From: Nitrososphaeria archaeon
Lineage (GTDB): Archaea > Thermoproteota > Nitrososphaeria > JACIWG01
Reading direction: 5' to 3'
NCBI GenBank assembly: GCA_050011875.1
Contig: JBEKIG010000007.1
Location: 52,260-116,259 of the forward strand
Length of the DNA stretch: 64,000 nucleotides
Part shown: positions 2,025 through 49,196 of the stretch, piece by piece
How positions within the stretch are numbered: position 1 is the stretch's first letter
Layout: every line of letters starts with the position of its first letter
Notes under the pieces: model-generated
Told to the model about the DNA's origin: nothing
The model's input: the letters and a program-made list of their open reading frames with translations, nothing else
Database searches by the model: none
Program-made: the position numbers and the translations under genes

Positions 2025-2254
2025 TAGTTCTCAATCTCCACAAGGGTTTCGGTAAACACTACTCCGGCTATGTTACTGATCTTGATCACATTTCTACCAA
2101 GTTCCTTTCCGTTCGAGGTTATTAGGTGAACTACGACATCATATCTTCCGAGAACAGGGTATGTGTCTACAACGGTTTCTATGCTCTTTATTCTTTCTAT
2201 GACGTCTATGAATTTGCCCTTCTCAGTCCTTATCAATATACATGCATCTACCAT
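2024..2254 (-). CDS. Stand-alone Lrp/AsnC ligand-binding (RAM) domain protein
   Basis: MVDACILIRTE...GRYDVVV...FTETLVE; start moved to ATG 2254, which has a TATA-like TTATATA about 30 bp upstream; overlaps its paralogue by 1 nt. Confidence 0.85.
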   Translation of the reverse strand: MVDACILIRTEKGKFIDVIERIKSIETVVDTYPVLGRYDVVVHLITSNGKELGRNVIKISNIAGVVFTETLVEIEN

Positions 2255-2373
2255 AACGTCTTCAAAAATTATAGTGTTCTGCCATATATAAGATTTTAGA
2301 ACCGATTTAGAAATATCGGTGTGCACGCTTAAAAAGGTGGTTTAGACTTTCCTAAATATCAAGGACTACTTGA

Positions 2374-2568
2374 TCAAGTATTTTTTGACTTGGTTTTCCT
2401 GTGATTGGGTCTAGTTCTCTTGCAGTATAGAATTCTGGTCGCGTAGCCACCTCCTCCAACATAGAGCTCCACCCATTTACTGTTCAGCTCAAGTTTTTCG
2501 AATGACTCCTTCTCCAAATCTACCTCAAGTATTTTTCCCGCATAACCATTATGATTTTGCGCTTTCAT
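2374..2568 (-). pseudogene. Truncated aldehyde:ferredoxin oxidoreductase (AOR), N-terminus only
   Basis: GYAGKILEVDL...YVGGGGYATRILY is the AOR N-terminal signature; similarity ends after about 48 aa (AORs are about 600 aa). Confidence 0.85.
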
Positions 2569-2573
2569 TCTTC

Positions 2574-2810
2574 TTAGCCGCCTTCGACTAACGGTAGAAT
2601 CCAAAGCTCGTCTACGTCTGATACTTCTGCGTTTGATTTTACAATCTTCATCTTGTTGATTGATAGGACATAATCGTCAAGAGGTACCCCAGACAGTTCT
2701 TTTATGTCTCTTATGCACAACTTGCCGTCTAGCTTTATTTCTTTTTCCTTAAAGCCTATCTTCTCACAAAGTGGGCTAAATACTTTAAGCTTCATTCTGT
2801 TATCCTCCAC
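2574..2810 (-). CDS. MoaD/ThiS-family sulfur carrier (ubiquitin-like SAMP)
   Basis: 78 aa ending PLVEGG (di-glycine); directly upstream of the AOR remnant, a common pairing. Confidence 0.85.
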   Translation of the reverse strand: MEDNRMKLKVFSPLCEKIGFKEKEIKLDGKLCIRDIKELSGVPLDDYVLSINKMKIVKSNAEVSDVDELWILPLVEGG

Positions 2811-2910
2811 ATATTAGAGATATCCAAATATGATTTTTAACCTTTAACCTTCTCGACACTAACATGTACAACTTCTAACATATGCTACTCTTGAATTAAG
2901 ACAGGCCGTA

Positions 2911-3333
2911 CTATTTCCTTTTACTGAAATATTCTTTAGCTTTATCAAAAGCTGGCTGAGCCTGTGCTGAAGGTTTCATGGGGGGAACGAAGACACAGTA
3001 AATAGTCATCTTTGACTTCGATGAGTTCCTAACTTGATGCTCTACACCGGCGTGTGCGTAGATCAAGGAGCCTCCGGAAACAGGAGTAACCTTTTCTTTT
3101 CCATTAACAATCTCGATAGCATTACCTCTTCCTTTTACCACGAGTATTATTTCATCGCCTTCATGGGTGTGCAGGCTCGTTGAACCTTTAGGCTCGAAAG
3201 TGACAAACAAAACGGTTGCCTTGTCGCTACCGTTAATGTCTGGATGAAGTGCAACCCTATACTCTCTCGGGTTCGGTGGTGCTAACTGAACTCGAGGGAT
3301 ATCCTTTGTATATATTACAACCATATTAATCAA
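2911..3333 (-). CDS. Cupin domain protein
   Basis: HTHEGDE...GVEH cupin metal-binding motifs. Confidence 0.85.
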   Translation of the reverse strand: MINMVVIYTKDIPRVQLAPPNPREYRVALHPDINGSDKATVLFVTFEPKGSTSLHTHEGDEIILVVKGRGNAIEIVNGKEKVTPVSGGSLIYAHAGVEHQVRNSSKSKMTIYCVFVPPMKPSAQAQPAFDKAKEYFSKRK

Positions 3334-3432
3334 ACGGAACTCTACTTTAAATGTATATAAACAATTTGATAGGTTTGCCAGCGGATAAAAGACATATTAA
3401 GTTCCTGATGATACTGAATGCTTTAGATTTGC

Positions 3433-4758
3433 TTGAGCCAAGAAAAAGATGTGGATAAACAACTTAAAGATAAGGCTATAGAACGGCACCTATTCTACCG
3501 CGGAAAGATAGAAATCGTGCCAAAATGCTGGATTTCGAGTTTAGATGATTTTTCTATATGGTATACTCCAGGAGTCGCTGCGGTATGTAACGAAATATTA
3601 AAAGACAAGGAGAGATCCTTTGATTACACATTAAGGTGGAATACAATCGCTGTCGTATCAGACGGCACACGTGTCTTGGGTCTTGGGAACATAGGCCCAG
3701 AAGCGGCAATTCCTGTTATGGAAGGCAAGGCGCTCATCTTCAAATACTTGGGTGGTGTTGACGCTGTGCCAATCTGTCTGAGCACGCGAGATGAAGATAA
3801 GATCGTGGAGATCGTAAAGTTCATGGAACCTTCCTTTGGTGGAATAAACTTGGAGGACATCGAAAAGCCTAAATGCTTCTCAGTTCTCGAAAGGCTGAAG
3901 AAACAGCTGTCTATACCTGTTTGGCACGATGACCAGCAAGGATCAGCAACTGTAATATGCGCTGGACTAATGAACGCGCTTAAGCTTGCAGGAAAAAAAA
4001 TGAAGGATGCCAAGATAACGATGATTGGTGCTGGTGCAGCTAACTATAGCGTAGAAAGACTAATCGTCAAAGCAGGAATTGATGAAAAGGAGATCGTTAT
4101 GGTTGATAGCAAAGGAATCCTGAACGACTCAAGAAAGGATCTTGAAGCAAATGAGCCATACAAGTGGAAATTATGTTTGAAGACAAACGGTGAGAGAAAA
4201 ACCGGAGATATTGCCAAGGCATTAAATGGCGCTGACGTCTGTATCGCTATGTCAAGGCCGGGACCTGGGATCATAAAGAAAGAATGGATTAAAGGGATGA
4301 ACAACAAAGCTATTGTTTTCTCGTGTGCAAATCCCGTTCCAGAAATTTGGCCTCATGAATCAAAGGAAGCAGGAGCCTTTATCATAGCCACTGCTAGAGG
4401 TGACTTCCCCAATCAACTAAACAACTCCCTCGTATTTCCAGGAATCTTCAGGGGAGCTCTTGATGTTAGGGCAAAGAGCATTTCAGATGGAATGTGCTTA
4501 GCTTCAGCAAGAGAAATAGCAAAGATGGCTGAAGATAATGGGCTGACTCCGGAGTATATTGTACCAACGATGGAAGAATGGGAAGTCTACCCAAGACAGG
4601 CCGCTGCAGTGGCATACCAGGCAACAGTAGAAGGACTTGCTAGAGTCAAAATTACCCAACAAGAAGAGCTTAGAAGCGCTAAGGAGTTAATCCTTTCTTC
4701 CAGAAAGAAGCTTGAGGTTTTAAAGGAAGCTGGTCTAATCTCTAAGCCTCAACATTAG
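3433..4758 (+). CDS. NAD(P)-dependent malic enzyme
   Basis: YTPGVA, VLGLGNIGPEAAIPVMEGK, INLEDI, HDDQQG, GAGAA and ANPVPEI motifs. Confidence 0.95.
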   Translation: MSQEKDVDKQLKDKAIERHLFYRGKIEIVPKCWISSLDDFSIWYTPGVAAVCNEILKDKERSFDYTLRWNTIAVVSDGTRVLGLGNIGPEAAIPVMEGKALIFKYLGGVDAVPICLSTRDEDKIVEIVKFMEPSFGGINLEDIEKPKCFSVLERLKKQLSIPVWHDDQQGSATVICAGLMNALKLAGKKMKDAKITMIGAGAANYSVERLIVKAGIDEKEIVMVDSKGILNDSRKDLEANEPYKWKLCLKTNGERKTGDIAKALNGADVCIAMSRPGPGIIKKEWIKGMNNKAIVFSCANPVPEIWPHESKEAGAFIIATARGDFPNQLNNSLVFPGIFRGALDVRAKSISDGMCLASAREIAKMAEDNGLTPEYIVPTMEEWEVYPRQAAAVAYQATVEGLARVKITQQEELRSAKELILSSRKKLEVLKEAGLISKPQH

Positions 4759-4942
4759 CGGATGAAAATAATAAAGGAGATTAGTCTAATTCTTCTTTTT
4801 TCCACATGTTGGCCTTAATTTAGGACCTGATGTTTTACAACATAAACTTAACCAATTCGCTCTCATCGAGATTGCATAAGACACGTAAAATGTGTTGGAA
4901 ATGGAGACGGAGCCAATTAATTTTTACAAAAATCTTCCTATT

Positions 4943-5284
4943 TTACGTGGGCTGTTTAGAAACAGTCATCTTTTTGATTTCTTGTACGGCTGTTGCGAAA
5001 TTCATATCAGACTCCGGAACTTCCATATCTATCTTTGAAAACATTTCAGTTACGATGGCTCTTAATAGAATGTTTGACCCGTATCCGAAGAGTGCACTTA
5101 AGAAAGATTCAAATTCTTTTGGGTAATCCGACACTTCCTCGAAAGATTTTAGATAGTAGTTCTTCATAAAATGTATTATTATAGCCTTTTTAGCGTTTTC
5201 ACCAAGAATTGATAGCGAGGATTCAACTGACTCGGTCACCAAGCGCCTGAATTGTTGGTTATCCAAAATAAAGCACCTATTCAT
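4943..5284 (-). CDS. Small archaeal helical protein (DUF3227-like)
   Basis: SLSILGENAKKAI...FESFLSALFGYGS pattern recalled from TACK hypothetical proteins. Confidence 0.55.
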   Translation of the reverse strand: MNRCFILDNQQFRRLVTESVESSLSILGENAKKAIIIHFMKNYYLKSFEEVSDYPKEFESFLSALFGYGSNILLRAIVTEMFSKIDMEVPESDMNFATAVQEIKKMTVSKQPT

Positions 5285-5575
5285 TCGCTTTGGGGAGATA
5301 TCGACCTAAACATCCCCTTTTTTCTCCTCTGTAAACAAAGTGTCAACAAAGTAATAATGAAATCCAAATGTCGTCGAATTCATAGATATTTTTTTCCTCG
5401 TTTGTTGATAGTGTCTTTTTATTCTATATAAATATTTTTATAAGGAAGCAGTTAATCTAAAGCTTATTCTAACTATTTTTATCCAATTTGTTTGAGAAAG
5501 ATTTATGAAATTATATGTGAACCATTAAAAATCAGTTGACGGAAAAATAAGTGATTGAAAGTTTACTTTTACGAT

Positions 5576-5962
5576 TCAGAGATGAGTTGGTTTACCCTCC
5601 GTTATTGTCTTAGATGGAATAAACTTTCCAAACATTTTAAGGAAGTTTGTGTCTTCATTCACATTCCTTAGATCATCTGGTAGCATAACAGGTATTTCTT
5701 CACTTATTGGAAACCATCTACCACAATTTATGCACAAGACCATACCCCATTTTATCTTGGCTGCAAGACACTTTTTACAGTCTTCTAATAGCAAATTTTT
5801 GTCTTTTCTGGATGATTTAATGTTGTTGTAAGAGCAAAACATTTCGCATGTTTCTTTAGGTTCTTCACATGGTGTTTGTTCAACCTTCTCGAATACATGC
5901 AGTTCTAGCGGATAGTTCTTGCACACAGGACATATGAGGATATCCATTAATCTGTACCTTAT
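5576..5962 (-). CDS. trm112: Trm112-family methyltransferase activator (Zn-binding)
   Basis: (I)RYRLMDILICPVCK...CINCGRWFPISEEIPVMLPD; first ATG at 5947, but the conserved N-terminus extends to an ATA at 5962. Confidence 0.85.
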   Translation of the reverse strand: MRYRLMDILICPVCKNYPLELHVFEKVEQTPCEEPKETCEMFCSYNNIKSSRKDKNLLLEDCKKCLAAKIKWGMVLCINCGRWFPISEEIPVMLPDDLRNVNEDTNFLKMFGKFIPSKTITEGKPTHL

Positions 5963-7371
5963 GTTATGCTCACCGTCTTGTACGATAGAGGTTCATTTAT
6001 AGGACGTTCTCTAACCAGATTTACAGCCTCTGTAAGCGAGTTTACAGCAAGGTTTTCAATTCTATTCAGAGAACGTTGGCTTCTTGCTTCTGCAGTAGTC
6101 TTTATCTGTGGTAAAGTATTAGATGCTCTGATTATAAACCAACCATCATCCAAGTCTACCCTGACACCGTCTATTGTTAAAGCATTGTAGCCTTCTCTAA
6201 CAAACTTTTCTTGCAGCTTAGCTATTACTGTGAACTTGATTCCTTCTGGGATATCATATACATTTCTTCTTGTAAAATATTTTGGTAAAGAATCAACAAG
6301 TGTCGAAAATTTTTCATCGGATTCCGAAAGTAATTGTGCAACCTTTAATGTAGCAAATATCGCGTCATCAGCGCCATACATATCTCTAAAATAAAGGTGG
6401 CCAGAAATTTCACCTCCCATATACGCATTCTCATTAATCATCTTCTCCAAGATGAACGAATGTCCAACCTTCGTTACAATCGATATGATACCACTTTCTC
6501 TGGCAACGTCGTCGAGTAGCTTTGAACAGCTCACCTCGTAGACGATCTTCTCACCAGGTGACTTTATGTAATGCCTAATAAAAATAGCGAGCATCTTGTC
6601 TCCTTCAATAATTCTCCCCTTATCATCCAAGAAGACTGCACGATCACCATCGCCATCGTATCCAATTCCAAAATCATAGTTTCCAGTTACCAATGGGATC
6701 TTAAGGGGCTTTAAAGATTCATCAGTTGGCTCAGGAGACCGAGAAGGAAAAGTACCATCAGGATAGTTATTCATTGCCTCAACGTCCAAACCAGCTTTTT
6801 CCAATATCTTGTCAGCAAACAGTGAGCAACAGCCATTGCCCATGTCCATAAGAACGCGAAGAGGGCGAGATATCTTGACTTTGTTAAGAACGAAGTCCTG
6901 AAAGTCGCGAATTATGATTTTACTCCAATCTTCAATCCTACCAGATGGAGCTTCATTGTACATTCTCTTTACGGCAATATCTTTGATTTTTTCCAGCCCC
7001 ATACCCCAACCGCAGAGTATACTTTTCTCTTTACAAAGTTTAAGACCATTCCATTCAGGAGGATTATGGCTCGCACTAATAACAGCACCTCCATCAAGAC
7101 CATAATGTGATATCGCAAAATATACCGTTGGGGTAGGTACAAGACCAACGTCATAAACATTAACGCCAACAGAAAGCATTCCTTTTATAAAAGCTTCCTT
7201 CAGGGATGGACTGCTTACTCTTACATCATTTCCTACAGCAACATTTTTTCCCACACCTCCTAAGTAAGTCCCATGAGCTTTACCGATAACCTCATAAACT
7301 CCTTCGTCGAGGTCAACGCCATATAAACCTCGAATGTCATACGCTCGGAAGATCTGATCCGTAATATTCAT
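5959..7371 (-). CDS. Phosphomannomutase/phosphoglucomutase
   Basis: FRAYDIRG, SASHNP phosphoserine loop, DGDGDR and GEISGH motifs; start moved to ATG 7371. Confidence 0.95.
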   Translation of the reverse strand: MNITDQIFRAYDIRGLYGVDLDEGVYEVIGKAHGTYLGGVGKNVAVGNDVRVSSPSLKEAFIKGMLSVGVNVYDVGLVPTPTVYFAISHYGLDGGAVISASHNPPEWNGLKLCKEKSILCGWGMGLEKIKDIAVKRMYNEAPSGRIEDWSKIIIRDFQDFVLNKVKISRPLRVLMDMGNGCCSLFADKILEKAGLDVEAMNNYPDGTFPSRSPEPTDESLKPLKIPLVTGNYDFGIGYDGDGDRAVFLDDKGRIIEGDKMLAIFIRHYIKSPGEKIVYEVSCSKLLDDVARESGIISIVTKVGHSFILEKMINENAYMGGEISGHLYFRDMYGADDAIFATLKVAQLLSESDEKFSTLVDSLPKYFTRRNVYDIPEGIKFTVIAKLQEKFVREGYNALTIDGVRVDLDDGWFIIRASNTLPQIKTTAEARSQRSLNRIENLAVNSLTEAVNLVRERPINEPLSYKTVSIT

Positions 7372-7551
7372 ATATAAAAAATAGGTATATGATTGTATAA
7401 AAACTTTTGCGACGCAGACGATAGAAACTTGTTTTACATGCGGTCTCATCAAATGTTAGACTCTTTGCTAATAACATGTTGAAGATAGAAGTCTTAAATA
7501 GTTTACTTGGAGACCGGCTAACCTAATTAAAAGCGTTTTGGTGTTGAAACA

Positions 7552-8595
7552 ATGAAAGTTGGAATAGTCGGATATGGCGTATACATCCCTAGATGGAGAA
7601 TCAGAACCGAAAATATTGCTGAGGTCTGGGGACAGGACGCAGAAGCCATTAAAAAAGGTTTGGGAGTTGAAGAAAAATCGGTGCCTTCAATGGACGAGGA
7701 CACGGCAACCATAGCTGTTGAGGCGGCTAGGAACGCGATGAAAAGAGCCTATGATTTAAAGGGCCATGAAATAGGCGCCATATACGTTGGATCCGAATCT
7801 CATCCTTATGCTGTGAAACCCACAGCTGTGACAGTTGCTGAGGCACTTGGCCTAACACCTAATATTACTGCGGCAGATACAGAATTCGCCTGTAAGGCAG
7901 CTACCGCAGGGATGCAGGCGTGTCTTGGGCTTGTTAAAGGAGGATATGTGAAATATGGCATTACAATAGGTGCTGATACAGCACAAAGTGCTCCAGGAGA
8001 TGCCCTCGAGTATACAGCTGCGGCAGGTGGAGCTGCATACATAGTTGGTGAAGACAACATTCTAGCAGAAATAGAGGGAACCTGCTCTTATACTCAAGAC
8101 GTCCCTGATTTTTGGAGAAGAGAGGGATCGCTGTACCCCAGACATGCTGGAAGGTTTACAGGTGAACCTGCATATTTTGAGCATGTCATAAAATGTAGTA
8201 AGAACCTAATGGAGAAACTTAACACATGCCCCACTGACTACACTTACGCAGTATTCCATATGCCAAATGGAAAGTTTCCTCTAAGGGCAGCAAGCCTCCT
8301 TGGATTTGATGTAAAGAAGGTGCTACCTGGGCTAGTGGTCCAAAATATTGGAAACACCTATTCTGGCTCATCATTACTTGGCCTAGCAGCGGTACTTGAT
8401 GAGGCAAAGTCAGGTGACAGAATCCTTATGACCTCATATGGCTCAGGAGCTGGATCAGACTCCTTTAGCATAACGGTCAAAGATGCGATAGAGCAAAAGA
8501 GAATGCTCGCACCCCCTGTAAAGTATTACATAAACAAAAAGAGTTACTTAAGCTACTCAATTTACGCAAAGAATAAGAAACTATTTAGAGATTGA
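7552..8595 (+). CDS. mvaS: Archaeal HMG-CoA synthase
   Basis: [17 protein letters not shown] catalytic Cys, FHMPNGKFP and SYGSGAGSD motifs. Confidence 0.95.
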
Positions 8596-9770
8596 TGGTT
8601 ATGCCCAATAAAAGAGAAGTGGCAATAATATCCGCTGCCGCAACAAAATGTGGAGAACACTGGGATAAAGGGATAAAGGATCTTGCTTGGGAAGCAGGTG
8701 TAAAAGCAGTTGATGAAGCAGGAATAAGCGGCAAGGACATAGAATACCTTGTCGTAGGAAACATGTCAGGAGGAATGTTCGTCGGACAGGAACACATAGG
8801 CGCCTTAGTAGCTGATTTCCTAGGATTAAACCCAATTCCTTCGCTTAGAGTAGAAGCAGCGTGTGCTTCAGGTGGAATCGCATTCTCACAGGGCTGCCTT
8901 GCCGTAGCCTCAGGGCTCTATGATATAGTTGCAGTCGGAGGAGTAGAGAAAATGACAGACGTTGAACCTGAGCAGGCGACAAGTGTCCTTTCAGGAGCAA
9001 TGGACTTCGAATGGGAAGCCTATTTTGGAGCTACCTTTCCAGGGTTATATGCACTTATGGCCAAAAGATACATGTACGAGTACAACGTTAAAATTGAAAC
9101 GCTAGCTAATGTTGCAGTCAAAAACCACTTCCACGGTAGCCTTAATCCTTTAGCTCATTTTAGAAACAGGATAACAGTAGAGGAGGCTTTAATATCGCCA
9201 ATGGTCGCAGACCCTTTAAGAAAGTACGATTGTAGCCCGGTATCTGATGGAGCAGCGGTAGCAATACTTGCACCTTTAGAAATTGCAAAAAAGTACACGG
9301 ACACTCCAATAATTGTTAAGGCAAGTGTTCCGGCTTCAGACACACTAAGTCTTCTAAAAAGGAGGGACATTTGCACAATAGACGCGACCGTCTATGCGGC
9401 AAACAAGGCATTCCAACTTGCGCATATGGAAAGGAAAGACATCGATGCCGTAGAAGTACATGACTGCTTCACAATAGCAGAGCTTCTAGCAATCGAGGAT
9501 CTAGGCTTCTGTAAGAAAGGAGAGGCGTCGAAGATGGTTAACGAAGGACAGACATATGTAGGAGGGAAGTTTCCAGTAAACATGGACGGTGGACTGAAGG
9601 CATCAGGACATCCCGTAGGAGCAACCGGTGTTAAGCAGATAGCGGAACTCGTCAAACAATTAAGAGGAGAGGCTGAGAGGGGAAGACAGGTTAATGGGGC
9701 TGAAGTAGGACTAGCGCACAATGTCGGAGGCTCAGGAGGAACTGCTGTTGTCACAATCTTGTCGAGGTAA
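8592..9770 (+). CDS. Acetoacetyl-CoA thiolase (archaeal type)
   Basis: [24 protein letters not shown] and HNVGG motifs; overlaps HMG-CoA synthase. Confidence 0.95.
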
Positions 9771-37558: not shown

Positions 37559-38321
37559 TTGAAAATTAAAAACTTTACGATCAACGTTATTATTGCAATA
37601 ATCTTAATCGTTATATTATTCCCTATTATTTGGATGTTACTTTGTTCTTTCAAATCGAATGTGGATATTATTACTCTCAAATTTTTCTTTAAACCGACCC
37701 TAGCCAATTATTTAAATGTTTTATCAACAGGGCGGCTCCTTACCGGTTTAAAAAACAGCGTGATAGTTGATGCAGGTGCATTACTTATAGGATTTGCGGT
37801 CGGTGTCCCTTTGGCGTATATCTTTGCTCGAGTAAACTTTCGTGGAAGAGAGTACTTGAAATTTTATGTCGCTTCTCTAAGATTTATGCCTCCTGTCGCA
37901 GTCATTATTCCTTTCCTGGCTATCTGGTTAATAGTAGGTCTATATGATACGCAGATTGCGCTTATTGTTACGTATTCGATGATAACCTCGTGCACGATGA
38001 TCTGGTTATGCATCGAATGCTTTACCTCAGTACCTATCAGTTGTGAAGAATCTGCCGCAGTAGATGGCTGTGATCCTTTCCAAGTTTTTTATTCCAAGTG
38101 TGCTTGCGATGCTTGTTTTCACTTTTATCTCAGTATGGAATGAATTCTTCCTAGCATTTGTTCTTACTGTCTTCAAAGCGTATACTCTGCCAGTAGCAGT
38201 CGAAGGAGCAATGGGTTCGTGGGGGCAGGTTTCCGCTATGGTTATCCTGTTTTCACTTCCACCATTACTATTAACATGGATTCTTTTAAGATACCTGCCA
38301 AGTTACTATAAAATAGAATAA
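37559..38321 (+). pseudogene. Carbohydrate ABC permease (MalG-type), frameshifted orphan copy
   Basis: EESAAVDG EAA loop and WNEF; 23-nt deletion after 38092 relative to the 53176-53944 paralogue. Confidence 0.88.
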
Positions 38322-42087: not shown

Positions 42088-42951
42088 ATGAATGAAATGA
42101 CAGGTAAGGTTTGCATTGTAACGGGAAGCAACTCGGGTATTGGAAAAGAGACTGCTTTGGGTTTAGCTCAGATGGGCGCGCACGCCGTAATGGTGGTGCG
42201 CAACATGGGACGTGGTGGAAAAGCTAGAGCTGAAATAATCAACAAAAGCGGGAACCGTTCCATAGACCTTATGAATTGTGACCTTTCGTTGATGAATTCG
42301 ATACGAAAATTTGCCGAGGAATTCAGAGGCAAATATGATAGGCTGGATGTGCTGATTAACAATGCGGGAGCAGCCTTCAACTCCCGAGAAGTAACAATTG
42401 AGGGTCTAGAAAGGACTTTAGCCGTAGACTATTTTGGGCCGTTTCTGCTTACACATGAACTTTTACCCTTGCTCAAGTCTAGCGCGCCCTCAAGAATAAT
42501 AAATTTGAGCTCAGGGCTACAAAAGAATGGGCAAGTCGATCTTGACGGCCTAAAAGGTGAAAAAGAGTTTGACCATTCAGGGCCATCAGTTTATGCCAAC
42601 GCCAAACTTATGGTCACCATGTTCACCTATGAGCTTGCACGCCAGCTTGAGGGTACTGGAGTAACTGCCAACGTAGTTTTACCCGGCTTCGTTGCAACAA
42701 ATCTTGGAATAAACAGCGGAAGCCTCGTATCTTCCATAATGTTCAAGCTGTTCCGTCCCATGCAGGTTAGTCCTAAGAAGGGAGCTGAAACTTCTCTTTA
42801 TATGGCCTCGTCCGAAGATGTAAGCAATGTTACTGGAAAATGTTTTTCAAAGAAACAGGAAAAAACAACCCCACAAATATCCCAAGATAGGCAATTGCAA
42901 AAACAATTATGGGAAAAGACGCTAGAAGTCTTAGGTTTGACTTCCTACTAA
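42088..42951 (+). CDS. SDR oxidoreductase, retinol-dehydrogenase/protochlorophyllide-reductase-like subgroup
   Basis: TGSNSGIG, INNAG, GPFLLTHELL, YANAK (YxxxK) and QLWEKT tail typical of this subgroup. Confidence 0.88.
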   Translation: MNEMTGKVCIVTGSNSGIGKETALGLAQMGAHAVMVVRNMGRGGKARAEIINKSGNRSIDLMNCDLSLMNSIRKFAEEFRGKYDRLDVLINNAGAAFNSREVTIEGLERTLAVDYFGPFLLTHELLPLLKSSAPSRIINLSSGLQKNGQVDLDGLKGEKEFDHSGPSVYANAKLMVTMFTYELARQLEGTGVTANVVLPGFVATNLGINSGSLVSSIMFKLFRPMQVSPKKGAETSLYMASSEDVSNVTGKCFSKKQEKTTPQISQDRQLQKQLWEKTLEVLGLTSY

Positions 42952-42978
42952 TCAGTTAGCATAAGAGGAAATATTAAT

Positions 42979-43416
42979 TTGGGTCGCCTCGATCCGAAAA
43001 AACTGCATGTCCTGTTTGCACTAGGAGCCTCGCAAGAAATTCTTATTTTACATAGAAGGTACACGCTTACTCATTCTGACACCACAGGCGACCTTTTTCT
43101 TACAATCGAACTCGATTACAATAGTAAACAGATATCAAGGATCTACACACACTTTATGCGTGATGAAATACTGGCTGAATGGAAGGAAGACGATGGAGAA
43201 AGTTTCTTTCTTAACGTGTATTGCTACATATCTGGAGGTTCCATCTTTGGTAGGGCATCTTGGCGTGAATCTATCTTTCGCAGTGAAATGTCCTTGGTCT
43301 TGGAAGCAATTAGATACGGAGGTCTCAAAATGTTTGCCAAATATACAAAACTTGATCAAGCAGTGATAATGATACATTTTACATCCTCAAAATCCTCCTT
43401 ACCCAAAATTGAGTAA
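42979..43416 (+). CDS. STAY-GREEN (SGR) family protein, Mg-dechelatase homologue; premature stop near the C-terminus
   Basis: RRYTLTHSD.TGDLFLTI, MRDEILAEW and IF..EM.LVLEAIRYG; TAA 43414-43416 is followed in frame by WGSSRDYKI* (to 43446), the expected ExWG tail. Confidence 0.88.
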   Translation: MGRLDPKKLHVLFALGASQEILILHRRYTLTHSDTTGDLFLTIELDYNSKQISRIYTHFMRDEILAEWKEDDGESFFLNVYCYISGGSIFGRASWRESIFRSEMSLVLEAIRYGGLKMFAKYTKLDQAVIMIHFTSSKSSLPKIE

Positions 43417-43534
43417 TGGGGGTCATCTAGAGACTACAAAATTTGATCAACCACTAGCTCGCACTACCCCAAATCCAATACATTGATCGAACTATGCTTC
43501 TTAAGAGTCCACCATTTTGCAATCCTAAGGGAAT

Positions 43535-44305
43535 TCATCGACGCTTGAATTTCACAAAAACGACAATGGCAATCAATGATATTGCTAAGATAATTGCACC
43601 TATTCCAGCTGTTGTGACTATGCTCTGATTTCCGCTTTGCATTACGGAGATGCCGACTAGCGCCCAGATGATGACTAGTCCATATGCTACGTCTTTCCTT
43701 GTTGTTATGACGAGTAGAGCTATCAACATGGCGACGATTATGATTAGGATGGCCCATGTCTCTGGACTTATTCCGAATCCGTTCCATTTAATTGAAACCA
43801 GCGTGACAGATACGTTGGCAATAGATGCGATGGTGATCCAACCTAGGTAAACGCTGAAAGGCAGATTAACAGCCAGTTTTTCACGCATCGGAGACTTAGA
43901 TTTTCCAATGTTAAGACGCAGGTATATCGAAATCAGAGTTGACAATAGCAGGAACATGATAACAACGGACAGACTAAGAAACTCAAACTGCCAAAGGAAA
44001 AGCCATATAATATTTAATACACTGCTCAAGATAAACAGTGGGCCAATACTTTTTTGAAAGTTTTTCCCCCGCTCAGCTGGCAATGCTTGAAAGACTACAA
44101 AAACCCCTAACAGGATGTAAATGACGCCCCAGATAGAGAACACGTAGCCAGCAGGAGTTACTAGTGTTGGGTTCGCATCAGAAACTTGAGCCGTGTTTCT
44201 ACCACCCAGAATCGTGGTACTACCGGCTAAGTCGTTAACTAGCACAGTAAGCAAATAAGCAATGATGTTTAACCATCTCAAATAAGCTGGATTGGAAGTC
44301 TTCAT
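43535..44305 (-). CDS. TspO/MBR-related tryptophan-rich membrane protein
   Basis: TPAGYVFSIWGVIY, LNIIWLFLW and FSVYLGWITIA motifs; about 8 TM helices. Confidence 0.78.
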   Translation of the reverse strand: MKTSNPAYLRWLNIIAYLLTVLVNDLAGSTTILGGRNTAQVSDANPTLVTPAGYVFSIWGVIYILLGVFVVFQALPAERGKNFQKSIGPLFILSSVLNIIWLFLWQFEFLSLSVVIMFLLLSTLISIYLRLNIGKSKSPMREKLAVNLPFSVYLGWITIASIANVSVTLVSIKWNGFGISPETWAILIIIVAMLIALLVITTRKDVAYGLVIIWALVGISVMQSGNQSIVTTAGIGAIILAISLIAIVVFVKFKRR

Positions 44306-44491: not shown

Positions 44492-45643
44492 TTAATAGGC
44501 TGGATGTTGTGCTACAACTTCCTCGTTTAATTCCACGCCGAGGCCAGGTTTAGTCGGCGGTATGATGTAGCCATTCTCCCACCGTATAGGTTCCTTTAGA
44601 ATTTCGGTGTGAAATCCACCCAACGTTTCTATTCCTTCTTGAATTAAGAAGTTGGGGCTACAGGTATCAATTTGAATATTCGCGGCAGCTTCGATTGGGC
44701 CGGCGTATAGGTGCGGTGCAATCTGCGCATAATGTGCTTCCGCCATCCCAGCAATCTTCTTGGCTTCTAGGATCCCTCCAACTCGTCCAAGGGCCATCTG
44801 TAGAATCGATGCTGCTTGCTTCTCCAAGAGTTCAGCGAACTCATATTTAGTTGACAGCCTTTCACCGGTTGCTATAGGTATGCTTGTGGATCTGGCAACC
44901 CTAGACATTTCCTTAACGTTCTCTGGAGGAACAGGCTCCTCAAACCACAACGGGTCGTACTTCTCAAGCCTCTTAGCCAACCGGATTGCACCAGAGGTCG
45001 TCATCTGGCCATGGGTTCCGATCATTATATCACATTTTTCACCGACGGTCTCACGCACGCTTCTAACAATAGCTTCTACGTTCTGGAGGGTTTCGAATGA
45101 AGGTTGCTCAGGAGAAGATACTGCAGGCCCAAGCGGATCGAACTTAAGAGCGGTGAAGCCTTGCTTTACATATTCCATTGCCCTTTGTGCAAAACGCTCT
45201 AGGTCATCGAACAAACCTTCACCAGCTGCGTACGGGTAGATGTAAGTGTAAGACCTCAGCTTTTCATGGTATTTCCCCCCGAGTAGATTGTAGATAGGCT
45301 GATCCAAGGCTTTGCCTATAATATCCCAGCATGCCATCTCAAATGCGCTGATCACTCCCAACATGGTCAGATCAGGATGCTCCGTGTACATTCTAGTGTA
45401 TAGTTTCCGCCACAGACTTTCTATCTTGAAAGGATCAGAGCCAATAACATCGCTTATACCGACGTCTTTAATCAGATTCATCGTAGTTTGAGGGTTAAAC
45501 GGTACACTGTAGGCTTCGCCGAAGCCTACTATTCCGTTGCCCGTCACTAGTTTTACAAATACCCAGTTTAGTCCTCCATAATGTGGAGGAGGATTCTCAA
45601 CAGCATATGTCTGAACTTCTGTTATTCTCATGAATACGTACAC
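44492..45643 (-). CDS. Mandelate racemase/galactonate dehydratase-like enolase-superfamily protein
   Basis: EMACWDIIGK, KFDP, GTHGQ, WFEEP, ATGER and APH motifs. Confidence 0.92.
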   Translation of the reverse strand: MYVFMRITEVQTYAVENPPPHYGGLNWVFVKLVTGNGIVGFGEAYSVPFNPQTTMNLIKDVGISDVIGSDPFKIESLWRKLYTRMYTEHPDLTMLGVISAFEMACWDIIGKALDQPIYNLLGGKYHEKLRSYTYIYPYAAGEGLFDDLERFAQRAMEYVKQGFTALKFDPLGPAVSSPEQPSFETLQNVEAIVRSVRETVGEKCDIMIGTHGQMTTSGAIRLAKRLEKYDPLWFEEPVPPENVKEMSRVARSTSIPIATGERLSTKYEFAELLEKQAASILQMALGRVGGILEAKKIAGMAEAHYAQIAPHLYAGPIEAAANIQIDTCSPNFLIQEGIETLGGFHTEILKEPIRWENGYIIPPTKPGLGVELNEEVVAQHPAY

Positions 45644-45790: not shown

Positions 45791-46969
45791 ATGAAAATAA
45801 CTGATGTGAAGACCTACATTGTTGGAGTTCCGCCACCTTATCGTGGCGGACGCAACTGGGTTTTTCTAAAACTTTCAACCGATGAGGGTATAGAAGGCTG
45901 GGGCGAGTGTAACGCATCATTCTTGAGACAATACACTCTAGTTCAGTTGATTCAAGAGCTTAGCGAAAAATATGTCATCGGACAGGATCCATTCGATATT
46001 GAAAGGATCTGGGAAGCGTTATATAAATCAACAAAAGAATATTCTGCTCACTTTTTCCAACATCCCGGAATCCTCACAGGTCAGGTCATAGCCGCCTACG
46101 AGATGGCTTGCTGGGACATCGTTGGGAAGGCGTTGAACCAACCAGTATACAGGTTGCTTGGTGGCAATAAAAATGAGAAGTTAAGAGCTTATACATATCT
46201 TTACGATTGGGCTGCTGGAGATCCACCAGAAAAGGCGGGACCTGCGGCCTTAAAGTTAGTAGAGAAGGGTTTTACACTCTTCAAGCTTGATCCTCTACCA
46301 CCTATTGCACCGCAGCCTAGGGAAATCTCTCTAAAGGAGCTGCGATACGCTGATGCTGTATTCAAGAATATTAGAAATGCGGTTGGTGACAACTGTGATA
46401 TAGGATGTGGCACTCATGGACAATACAATACTTATAGTGCAATTAAATTAGCAAAAATTCTGGAGAAGTACGACATATTATGGTTTGAGGAACCAGTTCC
46501 ACCAGAAAACATAGATGAGATGGCAAGGGTCGCTCAACATACAAATGTTCCCATCGCCACAGGCGAAAGGCTATCCACGAAGTGGGATTATCGTCTTCTA
46601 CTCGAAAAACAGGCTGCACAGATTATACAAGTCAATGTTGGCTTAAGCGGGATACTCGAGGCTAAGAAGATAGCAGGTATGGCTGAAGCATACTATACTC
46701 AGATAGCACCCTGGATGTTCTGTGGCCCTGTGGCCGCTGCAGCAAACATACAGCTCGATGTGACAGTTCCAAACTTCCTTGCACAAGAAGGCATCGAAAC
46801 CATGAGTGGCTTCCACGCAGAAATTGTTGAGGTTCCAATAAAAATTGAGAAAGGCTACATAATACCTTCAACCAAACCTGGATTGGGAATAGGCAAAGTC
46901 AAAGAGGAAGTATTAATTAAACACCCCTATCAACCTGAACAAAAACCTGCTGCCTCTGGTCGAAGTTAG
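45791..46969 (+). CDS. Mandelate racemase/galactonate dehydratase-like protein, divergently transcribed paralogue
   Basis: Same motifs as its neighbour but APW instead of APH. Confidence 0.92.
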   Translation: MKITDVKTYIVGVPPPYRGGRNWVFLKLSTDEGIEGWGECNASFLRQYTLVQLIQELSEKYVIGQDPFDIERIWEALYKSTKEYSAHFFQHPGILTGQVIAAYEMACWDIVGKALNQPVYRLLGGNKNEKLRAYTYLYDWAAGDPPEKAGPAALKLVEKGFTLFKLDPLPPIAPQPREISLKELRYADAVFKNIRNAVGDNCDIGCGTHGQYNTYSAIKLAKILEKYDILWFEEPVPPENIDEMARVAQHTNVPIATGERLSTKWDYRLLLEKQAAQIIQVNVGLSGILEAKKIAGMAEAYYTQIAPWMFCGPVAAAANIQLDVTVPNFLAQEGIETMSGFHAEIVEVPIKIEKGYIIPSTKPGLGIGKVKEEVLIKHPYQPEQKPAASGRS

Positions 46970-47600: not shown

Positions 47601-49109
47601 TCAATTATCTAATAGCTTGGAAATTTCTAAAATCTTGTCGTATACCTTTCTCCATCTAACATAAAGACTGTCATATATTTTGACGTTTTCTTGAACGGGA
47701 TTAACTGATCTTGTTTTAACGCACACCTTCTCAGCTTCCAACAGATTAGAGTACTTTCCTCCTCCAACGGACGCGCAAAGCCCTACGCCTACAGTTGTAG
47801 AGTCCTTTGATTCAGGGACCATAACCGGCCTGCCAAGTATATCAGCTAATATTTGGCACCATATTTGACTCCTTGAATTCCCTCCACAGAATCCGAGTTT
47901 CTCGATTTTCTTCTTCGCTATATTTTCTATCTGAAGGCAGTTTGCTCTAATAGCGTAGCAGGTGCTCTCGATTACTGCCCTAGCAATTTCTGCCTTTTTA
48001 GTGGGTTCAGATGACCAAGTTTCAAGTCCTACAATCGCACCTTGTGGAAGAATCAATTTCTTTTGGTCCATTATTGTCGAGCCCAAGAATGCTAATACCT
48101 TCGAATGACCAACAGGTACGGCTTCGACTTCACGGTTCAAGAATTCATATGCATCTGTGCAAACAACCTTTGACGTCATCGTCTCAAGCTCGGCAAAGTT
48201 ATCTCTAAACCATCTGTAAGCCCAACCTGTGATTCCTGCATTGCTTTCTAAAAAGAACTTCCCTGAAATAACATGATTACCAAACCATGTCCGTCTTTTT
48301 CTGTCAATAATAGGGGCGTCGGTCACCATAAGGATAGGTGTTGTAGTTCCTCCTACGGCTACGGTGTCACCTATGTCGACCCCTCCAGAACCAAGGACAC
48401 CACATTGCGCATCAGCTCCTCCCATTATTACCAAAGTTCCTTTTGCTAGACCCGTTTCAAATGAAGCTTTTTGGCTAACTTTTCCTAGGATTTGGGAACT
48501 GTTGAGCACTTTTGGAAATATCTCTTCGGGTAACCCAATTTCGTTGATAACATTCCAGTTCCAGTCTCCTTTGAAAACATCGAATAAGCAAGAAGACCCA
48601 GCGTTAGAAGGTTCACAGGCATATTCCCCAGTCAATTTATATAGTATCCAATTGCTCGCCATGAGCATCTTGGAGACTTTATTGAATAAGTTTGGTTTGT
48701 ACTTCTTTAGCCATAGCAACTTTGGAGGAGGCATTAGAGGTGCTACTGGCCAATGCCCAGATCTTTGATAAATTTCCTCTCCAAATCTTTCTTGTAAATC
48801 CTTACCTATATCAAAGATTCTTTTGTCAGTTGAAAAGGGAATTTCTTCCCCTTCACTGTTGATAAGAACGATATCCTCCCTGAATGCGGTAGAGCTGACA
48901 GCTAAGATTTGGGATGGGTTTAAATGCGTCCTTTCTAAAACGTCCCGTATTGCACTTTTAAAGGCATCCCAGCCTGTCTTAGGATCCCAAGTCTTGCGAT
49001 TCCATTCTTTTATAGAATCTCCGATGATTCTTCCTTCTGTTGTCAGAACAGCGCACTTTGCACCACCTCCTCCTGCGTCAAGTGCAATCACAAAATTCTT
49101 GTCAGACAA
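47601..49109 (-). CDS. FGGY carbohydrate kinase (LsrK/YoaC-like)
   Basis: ALDAGGGG, STAFRE, GGADAQ, ESNAGITG and RWFRD motifs; TTG start at 49109 after AAGGAGTG. Confidence 0.88.
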   Translation of the reverse strand: MSDKNFVIALDAGGGGAKCAVLTTEGRIIGDSIKEWNRKTWDPKTGWDAFKSAIRDVLERTHLNPSQILAVSSTAFREDIVLINSEGEEIPFSTDKRIFDIGKDLQERFGEEIYQRSGHWPVAPLMPPPKLLWLKKYKPNLFNKVSKMLMASNWILYKLTGEYACEPSNAGSSCLFDVFKGDWNWNVINEIGLPEEIFPKVLNSSQILGKVSQKASFETGLAKGTLVIMGGADAQCGVLGSGGVDIGDTVAVGGTTTPILMVTDAPIIDRKRRTWFGNHVISGKFFLESNAGITGWAYRWFRDNFAELETMTSKVVCTDAYEFLNREVEAVPVGHSKVLAFLGSTIMDQKKLILPQGAIVGLETWSSEPTKKAEIARAVIESTCYAIRANCLQIENIAKKKIEKLGFCGGNSRSQIWCQILADILGRPVMVPESKDSTTVGVGLCASVGGGKYSNLLEAEKVCVKTRSVNPVQENVKIYDSLYVRWRKVYDKILEISKLLDN

Positions 49110-49196
49110 AACAAAACACTCCTTTGGTATAGTATAGTGAATCCTAAGGGATACTTCAATTTTATCTGAATACAATAGCTGTTTACGTTTATAAAC

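Follow-up and report, generated by a model that had tools for sequence, protein, structure and literature searches.

The 64,000-nucleotide (nt) stretch of DNA analysed here, referred to as the window, is part of contig JBEKIG010000007.1 of the assembly GCA_050011875.1 (Nitrososphaeria archaeon), and three open reading frames (ORFs) occupy its positions 42088 to 44305: on the forward strand a gene for a short-chain dehydrogenase/reductase (SDR) and a gene of the Staygreen family (SGR), and on the reverse strand a gene for a TspO-like membrane protein (Table 1). As read from the sequence, 27 nt separate the TAA stop of the SDR gene, which ends at 42951, from the TTG start of SGR, and a Shine-Dalgarno (SD)-like AAGAGGA precedes that start; in the same-genus relative L002 the corresponding place holds GGAGG. 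SGR and the membrane gene are convergent, with a spacer of 118 nt between them. The source genome is metagenome-assembled (2.64 Mb in 119 contigs, 97% complete, with 4.8% estimated contamination), and the whole three-gene stretch is also present in sequencing runs labelled as peat metagenome. Plant pigment detritus is abundant in peat.

Table 1. Features of the window and of other loci; coordinates refer to the sequence named in the first column.
Sequence	Feature	Coordinates	Strand	Basis or remark
Window	Classical SDR oxidoreductase, 287 amino acids (aa), intact	42088..42951	+	Pfam adh_short (PF00106) 3.2e-35, 121.8 bits
Window	SD-like AAGAGGA	42963..42969	+	9 nt 5' of SGR start codon; read from sequence
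Window	Staygreen-family (Mg-dechelatase homologue) ORF, 145 aa, TTG start; probably a young pseudogene	42979..43416	+	Pfam PF12638 3.5e-40
Window	Codon 115, GGT (Gly) for family Asp (Asp114 of AbSGR-h)	43321..43323	+	YGG instead of YGD
Window	Premature TAA, codon 146	43414..43416	+	Relatives have CAA or another sense codon
Window	Former C-terminal tail WGSSRDYKI and TGA, now untranslated	43417..43446	+	Aligns with near-invariant WG..DY family tail
Window	Long-form TspO/MBR-related membrane protein, 256 aa, intact; TspO-like core of about 170 residues and three helices	43535..44305	-	Remote homology
Window	Enolase-superfamily (MR/MLE) paralogue	44492-45643	-	Divergent from the next; about 55% identical to it
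Window	Enolase-superfamily (MR/MLE) paralogue	45791-46969	+	
Window	524-aa ORF	47601-49175		
Window	Hydrophobic ORF	37559-38143	+	Overlaps the next
Window	Hydrophobic ORF	38064-38321	+	
L116	Cluster with TspO-like, SDR, SOUL and PNPOx-like genes	2084-5762		
L110	Cluster with TspO-like, SDR, SOUL and PNPOx-like genes	2862-8718		
L107	Cluster of the same recurring kind	4006-6345		
L102	33-codon SGR relic	5361-5459	-	MKRLNPENL...PRCYTFTHS, E about 2e-6
L103	DUF6512 gene	4266-4808	-	
L087	HbpS-like haem-degrading-family gene	6464-6790	+	PF03928, 8.6e-16
L030	Unnamed protein of about 182 aa	5051-5599	+	No Pfam match
L033, L035, L054, L063, L065, L070, L017, L046, L056	SGR beside heliorhodopsin	about 6001-6432 in most		Heliorhodopsin PF18761, representative 1.8e-97

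A preliminary description of this locus, made from the sequence alone, had read the three genes as a candidate module that de-metallates, reduces and binds or exports chlorins or endogenous tetrapyrroles, with the caveat that SGR might be decaying. Its statements on the SDR gene, the intergenic spacer, the AAGAGGA and the convergent membrane gene all hold on re-reading; its attribution of the DNA to an archaeon agrees with the closest loci, which are those of Nitrososphaeria archaeon (one with flanking proteins 94-97% identical to those of the window); and its family assignments, Pfam adh_short for the SDR and Staygreen for SGR, are right. What it saw within SGR is likewise present, i.e. H32, D34 and D62 in the THSD and RDE motifs, the early TAA followed in frame by WGSSRDYKI and a TGA, and YGG for the usual YGD. 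The caveat of decay has become the main result, carried by a nonsense codon, a lost Asp and a neutral pattern of evolution.

The window SGR is matched by the Pfam Staygreen profile with 137.7 bits (cut-off 27) over positions 2-138 of 147, and by the PDB chain 7y5y_A at 1e-37 with residues 2-137 aligned; NCBIfam returned no model for it. In addition to H32 and D34 (THSD, residues 31-34) and D62 (RDE, residues 61-63), it keeps R26, Y28 and T29. Position 115, now Gly, is Asp in 118 of 119 homologues, these 118 reading YGD, and Gly in none. The stop at codon 146 costs the protein ten residues, that codon itself and nine beyond, and all 119 homologues continue for at least nine residues past the last residue of the window SGR. 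If the TAA is read through, the Pfam match lengthens to profile positions 2-147 and its score rises from 137.7 to 148.8 bits; the lost tail is still recognisable by Pfam, and the stop is therefore young. A recoding of TAA was considered and dropped, given that the neighbouring SDR gene ends in the same codon and that there is no sign of another genetic code. Over the 58 alignment columns with a conservation of 90% or more, the window SGR departs from the family at seven, as against a median of two and a maximum of five among the 119 homologues, and the near-invariant residues that have changed include P25H, G44E and H83Y. In AbSGR-h, the studied homologue, R26 and D114 are reported to form a buried ionic bond (PMC8531759); the variants in Table 2 of that paper include R26D, Y28A, T29A and D114N as inactive and insoluble, and the same source gives D34N and D62N as soluble but inactive and H32A as weakly active. 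In the window Arg26 is kept and its partner is Gly, so that the Arg26-Asp114 salt bridge is lacking, as is the full-length WG..DY tail.

Substitution counts point in the same direction. When the window was compared with a same-genus genome (locus L089) by Nei-Gojobori counts, SGR had 4 synonymous and 15 non-synonymous differences, which gives a ratio of non-synonymous to synonymous divergence (dN/dS) of 1.02. The corresponding figures are 21.5 and 16.5 for the SDR gene (dN/dS 0.21), 27 and 25 for the TspO-like gene (0.28), and 42 and 12 (0.08) and 39.5 and 15.5 (0.10) for enolase-superfamily genes 1 and 2 next to them. Purifying selection at the level of these four neighbours (0.08-0.28) is thus not seen in SGR, and Fisher's test on the non-synonymous and synonymous counts of SGR against its flanks gives p = 2.8e-4. 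The same-genus copy of SGR is itself frameshifted: it carries deletions of 1 and 6 nt, five additional G in the G-run of the tail and an S33F change in THSD, all within 450 nt, whereas the four genes that flank it (3966 nt) have exactly the lengths found in the window. Broken SGR copies elsewhere were found in two of 80 loci of other species, both in the taxonomic family of the window. Two in-frame stops in the SGR of the family-mate G004 were not used as firm evidence, since the TspO-like gene there is also broken and the contig is of low coverage. On a quick tree, in which 36 of 76 inner branches are unresolved, the end branch of the window SGR measures 0.71 against a median of 0.24. Judged from these sequence comparisons, SGR in this genus is probably a pseudogene of recent origin; at best it encodes an impaired enzyme. 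Because of the nonsense codon, the loss of Asp and the dN/dS of 1.02, a working de-metallating step in the genome of the window appears unlikely.

The stop codon, which the preliminary description had singled out for verification in reads, is the same in three separate assemblies. The Logan contigs of runs X1 (depth 9.4) and X2 (depth 42.9) carry the TAA and agree with the window at every one of 2218 bases, and a 13-kb metagenome contig, L181, is identical over 7333 bases, TAA included; all three may come from the source sample, and so they exclude an assembly slip but show no second population. Run X4, from soil and from another study, yielded a contig about 95% alike that has C at 43414 (CAA) and A at 43322 (GAT, Asp), together with ancestral letters at codons 25, 44, 45, 79, 83, 88 and 105; it also has GG inserted behind 43417, which frameshifts the tail. 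The run of G that follows codon 147 (the 43417-43423 region of the window) counts five in the window, seven in X4 and ten in L002, so the tract behind the SGR stop appears as a slippage-prone stretch in former coding sequence. Run X3 held parts of the SDR and TspO-like genes alone, with no SGR, and no conclusion was drawn from it. A metagenome scan with the window SGR returned two loci, one 100% and one 57% identical.

The SDR gene is in a different state. Its product shows the motifs TGSNSGIG, NNAG (at 91), SSG (at 141) and YANAK (at 169), and the catalytic Ser-Tyr-Lys is kept; from these motifs and the substitution counts it is predicted to be an NAD(P)-dependent oxidoreductase under purifying selection. 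It passes no NCBIfam model, the best being PRK06197 with 183 bits against a cut-off of 268, and its best PDB match is 3rd5, an uncharacterised mycobacterial SDR (3.3e-25). Retinol dehydrogenases and chlorophyll b reductase are other SDRs of pigment metabolism.

The preliminary description had called the membrane protein TspO-like, which stands by remote homology through its relatives but not by any Pfam match of the protein itself: it matched no Pfam family at E up to 10, nor any NCBIfam model. Six of nine relatives scanned (50-73% identical) pass Pfam TspO_MBR (PF03073) with 25.2-33.3 bits (cut-off 24), with matches that span profile positions 6-143 of 145 and lie in roughly the first 170 residues, and eight of 14 alignment members match TspO_MBR at E up to 1. 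Among 8000 candidates there are at least 6859 homologues at E up to 0.001, many of them 70-96% identical, and some carry the name benzodiazapine receptor or tryptophan-rich sensory protein in their source records. The protein is Trp-rich (8 of 256 residues), and its ESM Atlas feature score to clusters named tryptophan-rich sensory protein is 0.98. The AlphaFold (AF2) model has a mean confidence (pLDDT) of 70.5 and eight long helices, three of which, at residues 181-255, are extra. When residues 5-179 of the model were compared by VIA-align, RsTSPO gave Z 9.5 (root-mean-square deviation, rmsd, 4.5; 151 of 157 residues) and BcTSPO Z 9.0 (rmsd 4.1; 144 of 151 residues), both supportive of the likeness but below the value of about 13 that is decisive for helical bundles. 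A profile of the TspO-like family run against PDB sequences found no TspO chain, with weak matches to ribonuclease kappa at E 0.15 and weaker, and Foldseek against the PDB gave nothing at E up to 0.001, with BcTSPO (4rym) at rank 34 and probability 0.72. On the passing relatives and the predicted model, the protein is best described as a long-form TspO relative, a predicted five-helix TspO core followed by three helices; by analogy with bacterial TspO it would probably bind porphyrin-type pigments. Bacterial TspO is also reported to break porphyrins down in a light-dependent manner.

How far the three genes belong together can be judged from their company in other genomes, and for this purpose the best 80 of 521 SGR-encoding genome loci were taken with up to 6 kb on each side, searched with the proteins of the window and their ORFs clustered. 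All three genes occur together in one of the 80, the same-genus locus L002, and in 80 TspO-like loci an SDR orthologue is never accompanied by SGR; this order of the three belongs to the genus and is not a conserved operon. The recurrence of an SDR gene next to SGR, which the preliminary description had proposed to look for, is not conserved: the orthologous SDR (94% identical) is confined to that same-genus locus, and four further SGR loci carry unrelated SDRs that are 25-27% identical. A TspO-like gene does recur, with one in the flanks of five of the 80 loci and directly adjacent in four of them. In L002 it is convergent with SGR as in the window; in L023 (Bathyarchaeota) it is 71% identical and lies directly upstream on the same strand; in L021 and L029 (Dehalococcoidales) it is directly upstream; and in L044 (Dehalococcoidia) it lies 1.8 kb upstream. 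A rough null, the ratio of DNA examined to genome size, would lead one to expect about 0.26-0.78 such loci, and the five pairings require two to four separate origins on the quick tree.

The commonest close neighbour of SGR is heliorhodopsin, present in 15 of the 80 loci and in nine of these within 202 nt on the same strand (Table 1). Other recurrent neighbours, again among the 80, are DegV (13), PNPOx-like (9-10), MsrA/B (8-9), NmrA/DUF2867 (8) and photolyase (7) genes, and tblastn on the same loci found AhpC in ten, UvdE in three and DUF1722 in three; in 29 loci one or more of heliorhodopsin, photolyase, TspO-like, UvdE and DUF1722 genes are present. No paper that combines 'heliorhodopsin' with 'staygreen' or 'stay-green' was found among the full texts searched, which do not include about 1.7 million articles in PubMed Central or the majority of subscription journals. 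In 13 of the 80 loci, mostly of Dehalococcoidia, the gene directly upstream of SGR codes for an unnamed protein of about 182 aa (e.g. L030, L043, L042 and L016).

The reverse survey started from the TspO-like gene and covered the best 80 of its loci, which number at least 563; most of the 80 are from Bathyarchaeia. Orthologues of the window SDR (63-70% identical) lie within 2.1 kb of the TspO-like gene in four of them: in L116 (70%) 1.4 kb upstream, in L110 and L111 (66%; these two look like close kin) 2.1 kb downstream, and in L107 (63%) directly upstream on the same strand; a 43% identical SDR relative is found near the TspO-like gene of L167. Under the rough null, 0.25-0.78 loci with an SDR orthologue would be expected where four were seen. 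The gene order in L116 is AhpC, SDR, SOUL and PNPOx-like on one strand with the TspO-like gene on the opposite strand, and in L110 it is UvdE, DUF1722, TspO-like, SOUL, alpha/beta hydrolase, PNPOx-like and SDR. L116, L110 and L107 thus share a recurring Bathyarchaeia cluster of long-form TspO, SOUL, PNPOx-like and SDR genes, with AhpC, UvdE and DUF1722 alongside. This repeated company of SDR orthologues and TspO-like, SOUL and PNPOx-like genes in Bathyarchaeia makes it plausible that the SDR and the TspO-like gene are connected through tetrapyrroles. SOUL haem-binding genes occur in seven of the 80 TspO-like loci. A DUF6512 gene (about 180 aa) is found in 14-15 of them, and mostly adjoins or overlaps the end of the TspO-like gene (L103, L113, L117 and L131). 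Apparent SGR matches in L165 and L169 were false, a long ORF in the query set having carried a second gene; Pfam assigns the matched ORFs to DUF1475. In L102, near the TspO-like gene and between heliorhodopsin and SOUL genes, lies a 33-codon relic of SGR, which looks like a second, independent loss of this gene.

The genome of the window itself holds one SGR and one TspO-like gene, as far as was found. Although it is 97% complete, searches in it for SOUL and photolyase genes found none; nor was a heliorhodopsin found, a weaker negative in that its control search gave no match in any of the 14 named control genomes. SGR is present in four of 61 related genomes searched, all in the family of the window, and on the quick tree the window copy groups with Bathyarchaeia copies and not with the intact copy of its family-mate, so that separate acquisitions in the two are likely. 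The nearest relatives listed include an SGR 90% identical to that of the window (P0002), which together with P0003 is an intact near relative, and a TspO-like protein 95% identical (P0123); P0002 and P0123 are each listed with a contig of 1557 nt, which may be one and the same. Directly upstream of the intact SGR of a family-mate (155 aa, L087:6995-7462) there is an HbpS-like haem-degrading-family gene, and downstream of it lie MOFRL and aldehyde ferredoxin oxidoreductase genes.

On the far side of the TspO-like gene, the two divergent enolase-superfamily paralogues of the window are bordered by cupins, a GFO/IDH/MocA oxidoreductase and the 524-aa ORF, and this region looks like a sugar-acid catabolism cluster. 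Elsewhere in the window, the two overlapping hydrophobic ORFs look like a candidate frameshift-split transporter permease.

The families in this locus are known and ordinary, and the most interesting of its genes, SGR, is dying. It is rather probable, in our judgement, that it represents a genus-specific remnant of a loose tetrapyrrole and light-stress gene set, in which SGR has recently been inactivated and the SDR and TspO-like genes have stayed intact. The company on which this reading draws recurs loosely in Bathyarchaeia, other archaea and Chloroflexota, and combines tetrapyrrole-binding proteins (TspO, SOUL and perhaps PNPOx-like) with light sensing and with UV and oxidative repair. The 27-nt gap and the SD-like motif make it probable that SGR was formerly co-transcribed with the SDR gene. 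The ancestral unit would have handled photosensitising tetrapyrroles: SGR would have taken Mg out of chlorophyll-type pigments, and the TspO-like protein would have bound these. A change of CAA to TAA has removed the conserved ten-residue tail, and Asp115, whose counterpart in the studied enzyme forms a buried salt bridge with Arg26, is now Gly. SGR might decay because an archaeon of peat no longer needs the light-linked part of such a unit, a dark-lineage reading prompted by the genome in which no heliorhodopsin, photolyase or SOUL gene was found.

Several observations weigh against this reading. The SGR ORF is open for 145 codons, the residues H32, D34, D62, R26, Y28 and T29 and the SD-like motif are kept, and the protein may, to judge from its sequence, have residual or altered activity. 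The dN/dS of SGR is computed from 19 substitutions in all, and its synonymous divergence (0.043) is lower than the 0.12-0.18 of the flanks. Sequencing errors might be among the indels of the sister copy, two of which fall in single-base runs, and the third broken copy of the family (G004) is of doubtful assembly quality. The pairings are few, related genomes do not count as independent, each pairing comprises about three lineages, and the null is rough. Seen from the TspO-like side, SGR adjoins the gene in one of 80 loci (the same L023), to which the 33-residue relic may be added; because five of 80 SGR loci and one of 80 TspO-like loci are paired, the link between SGR and TspO is at most facultative.

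There are, though, other ways to read the locus. SGR could have no functional link with its neighbours and be a horizontally acquired passenger, now eroding, between an unrelated SDR gene and a common membrane gene in a sugar-acid catabolism region. The GFO/IDH/MocA oxidoreductase, cupins, enolase-superfamily genes and kinase-like ORF around it are unrelated to tetrapyrroles, and the grouping of the window SGR with Bathyarchaeia copies instead of that of its family-mate, its presence in four of 61 related genomes, and the 75 of 80 SGR loci without a TspO-like gene and 79 of 80 without an orthologous SDR would all suit a passenger. We nevertheless hold this to be unlikely, for a TspO-like gene is directly beside SGR in four of 80 loci with two to four origins, where 0.26-0.78 would be expected for any match in the flanks, and three or four Bathyarchaeia genomes have SDR orthologues in the company of TspO-like, SOUL and PNPOx-like genes.

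The module proposed in the preliminary description would instead be active as it stands: the shortened SGR would de-metallate chlorins or Mg- or Zn-tetrapyrroles, the SDR would reduce them and the TspO-like protein would bind or export them. The residues D34 and D62, catalytic in AbSGR-h, and H32 are all in place, SDR and SGR look co-transcribed on account of the spacer and its SD-like motif, SGR-TspO and SDR-TspO pairings recur elsewhere, and the stretch is found in metagenome runs from peat, which is rich in pigments. Against this, D115G affects the very residue at which D114N is reported to abolish solubility and activity (PMC8531759), a tail kept by 119 of 119 homologues is lost, SGR evolves with a dN/dS of 1.02 and is frameshifted in its sister copy, and the SDR orthologue stands beside SGR in one of 80 SGR loci. 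From that proposal the family assignments and the recurrence of pairs survive, and a working de-metallating step is unlikely and the order of the trio is restricted to the genus; as a whole it seems quite improbable. The least credible reading, that the gene is intact and that faulty sequencing or assembly produced the stop codon and the unusual residues, could appeal to a metagenome-assembled genome with its estimated contamination and to agreeing runs that may be the genome's own source, but X1, X2 and L181 are identical over 2.2 to 7.3 kb and about ten separate point substitutions, and not indels in single-base runs, would have to be wrong.

With the locus read as a remnant in which SGR is being lost, a wider and more tentative proposal can be made, which is possible but which we would not yet favour: that non-phototrophic archaea and Chloroflexota share a hitherto undescribed loose gene set directed against light and photosensitising tetrapyrroles. 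Its core would be long-form TspO, SOUL, PNPOx-like and one SDR clade, with Staygreen, heliorhodopsin, photolyase, UvdE, Msr and AhpC as frequent partners, and the trio of the window would be its remnant in a dark-adapted lineage. Such a set, if real, would give prokaryotic Staygreen homologues a testable role, their physiological relevance being stated as unknown in PMC8531759. SGR homologues of non-photosynthetic bacteria and Archaea have already been published (PMC8531759; bioRxiv 10.64898/2026.03.19.712979), and the available passages of the latter contain no mention of TspO or of gene neighbourhoods. Many microbes that do not make chlorophyll have Staygreen homologues; the window is no working example of them, its copy dying, but it offers a dated case of Staygreen loss in which the tail and the salt-bridge Asp go first. 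The gene-context evidence, in which Staygreen, long-form TspO, SOUL, PNPOx-like genes and one SDR clade accompany light-sensing and UV- or oxidative-repair genes, directs attention to intact loci suited to testing for a role linked to light or pigments, e.g. L023, L021, L116 and L110.

The three products can finally be set beside known systems. The window SGR shares its Pfam family with plant STAY-GREEN and with AbSGR-h of an Anaerolineae bacterium (PDB 7Y5Y), and H32, D34, D62, R26, Y28 and T29 are equivalent; unlike AbSGR-h, it has Gly for Asp114, a tail truncated by a stop, further changes at near-invariant positions and a neutral substitution pattern. The SDR shares classical motifs with protochlorophyllide reductase (LPOR), chains of which are among its PDB matches, but in this comparison of PDB sequences the match is confined to SDR residues 9-142, the N-terminal half, at 1.5e-15 and ranks behind FabG-type and uncharacterised SDRs; there is no full-length similarity that would make it an LPOR, and no special tie to protochlorophyllide reductase emerges. 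Bacterial TspO/MBR proteins have about 150-170 residues and no further domains, and the whole TspO domain of RsTspO (PDB 8E7W) and BcTSPO (PDB 4RYI) corresponds to the N-terminal 170 residues or so of the window protein, which at 256 aa exceeds that size and continues into three C-terminal helices, a long form common to thousands of homologues.

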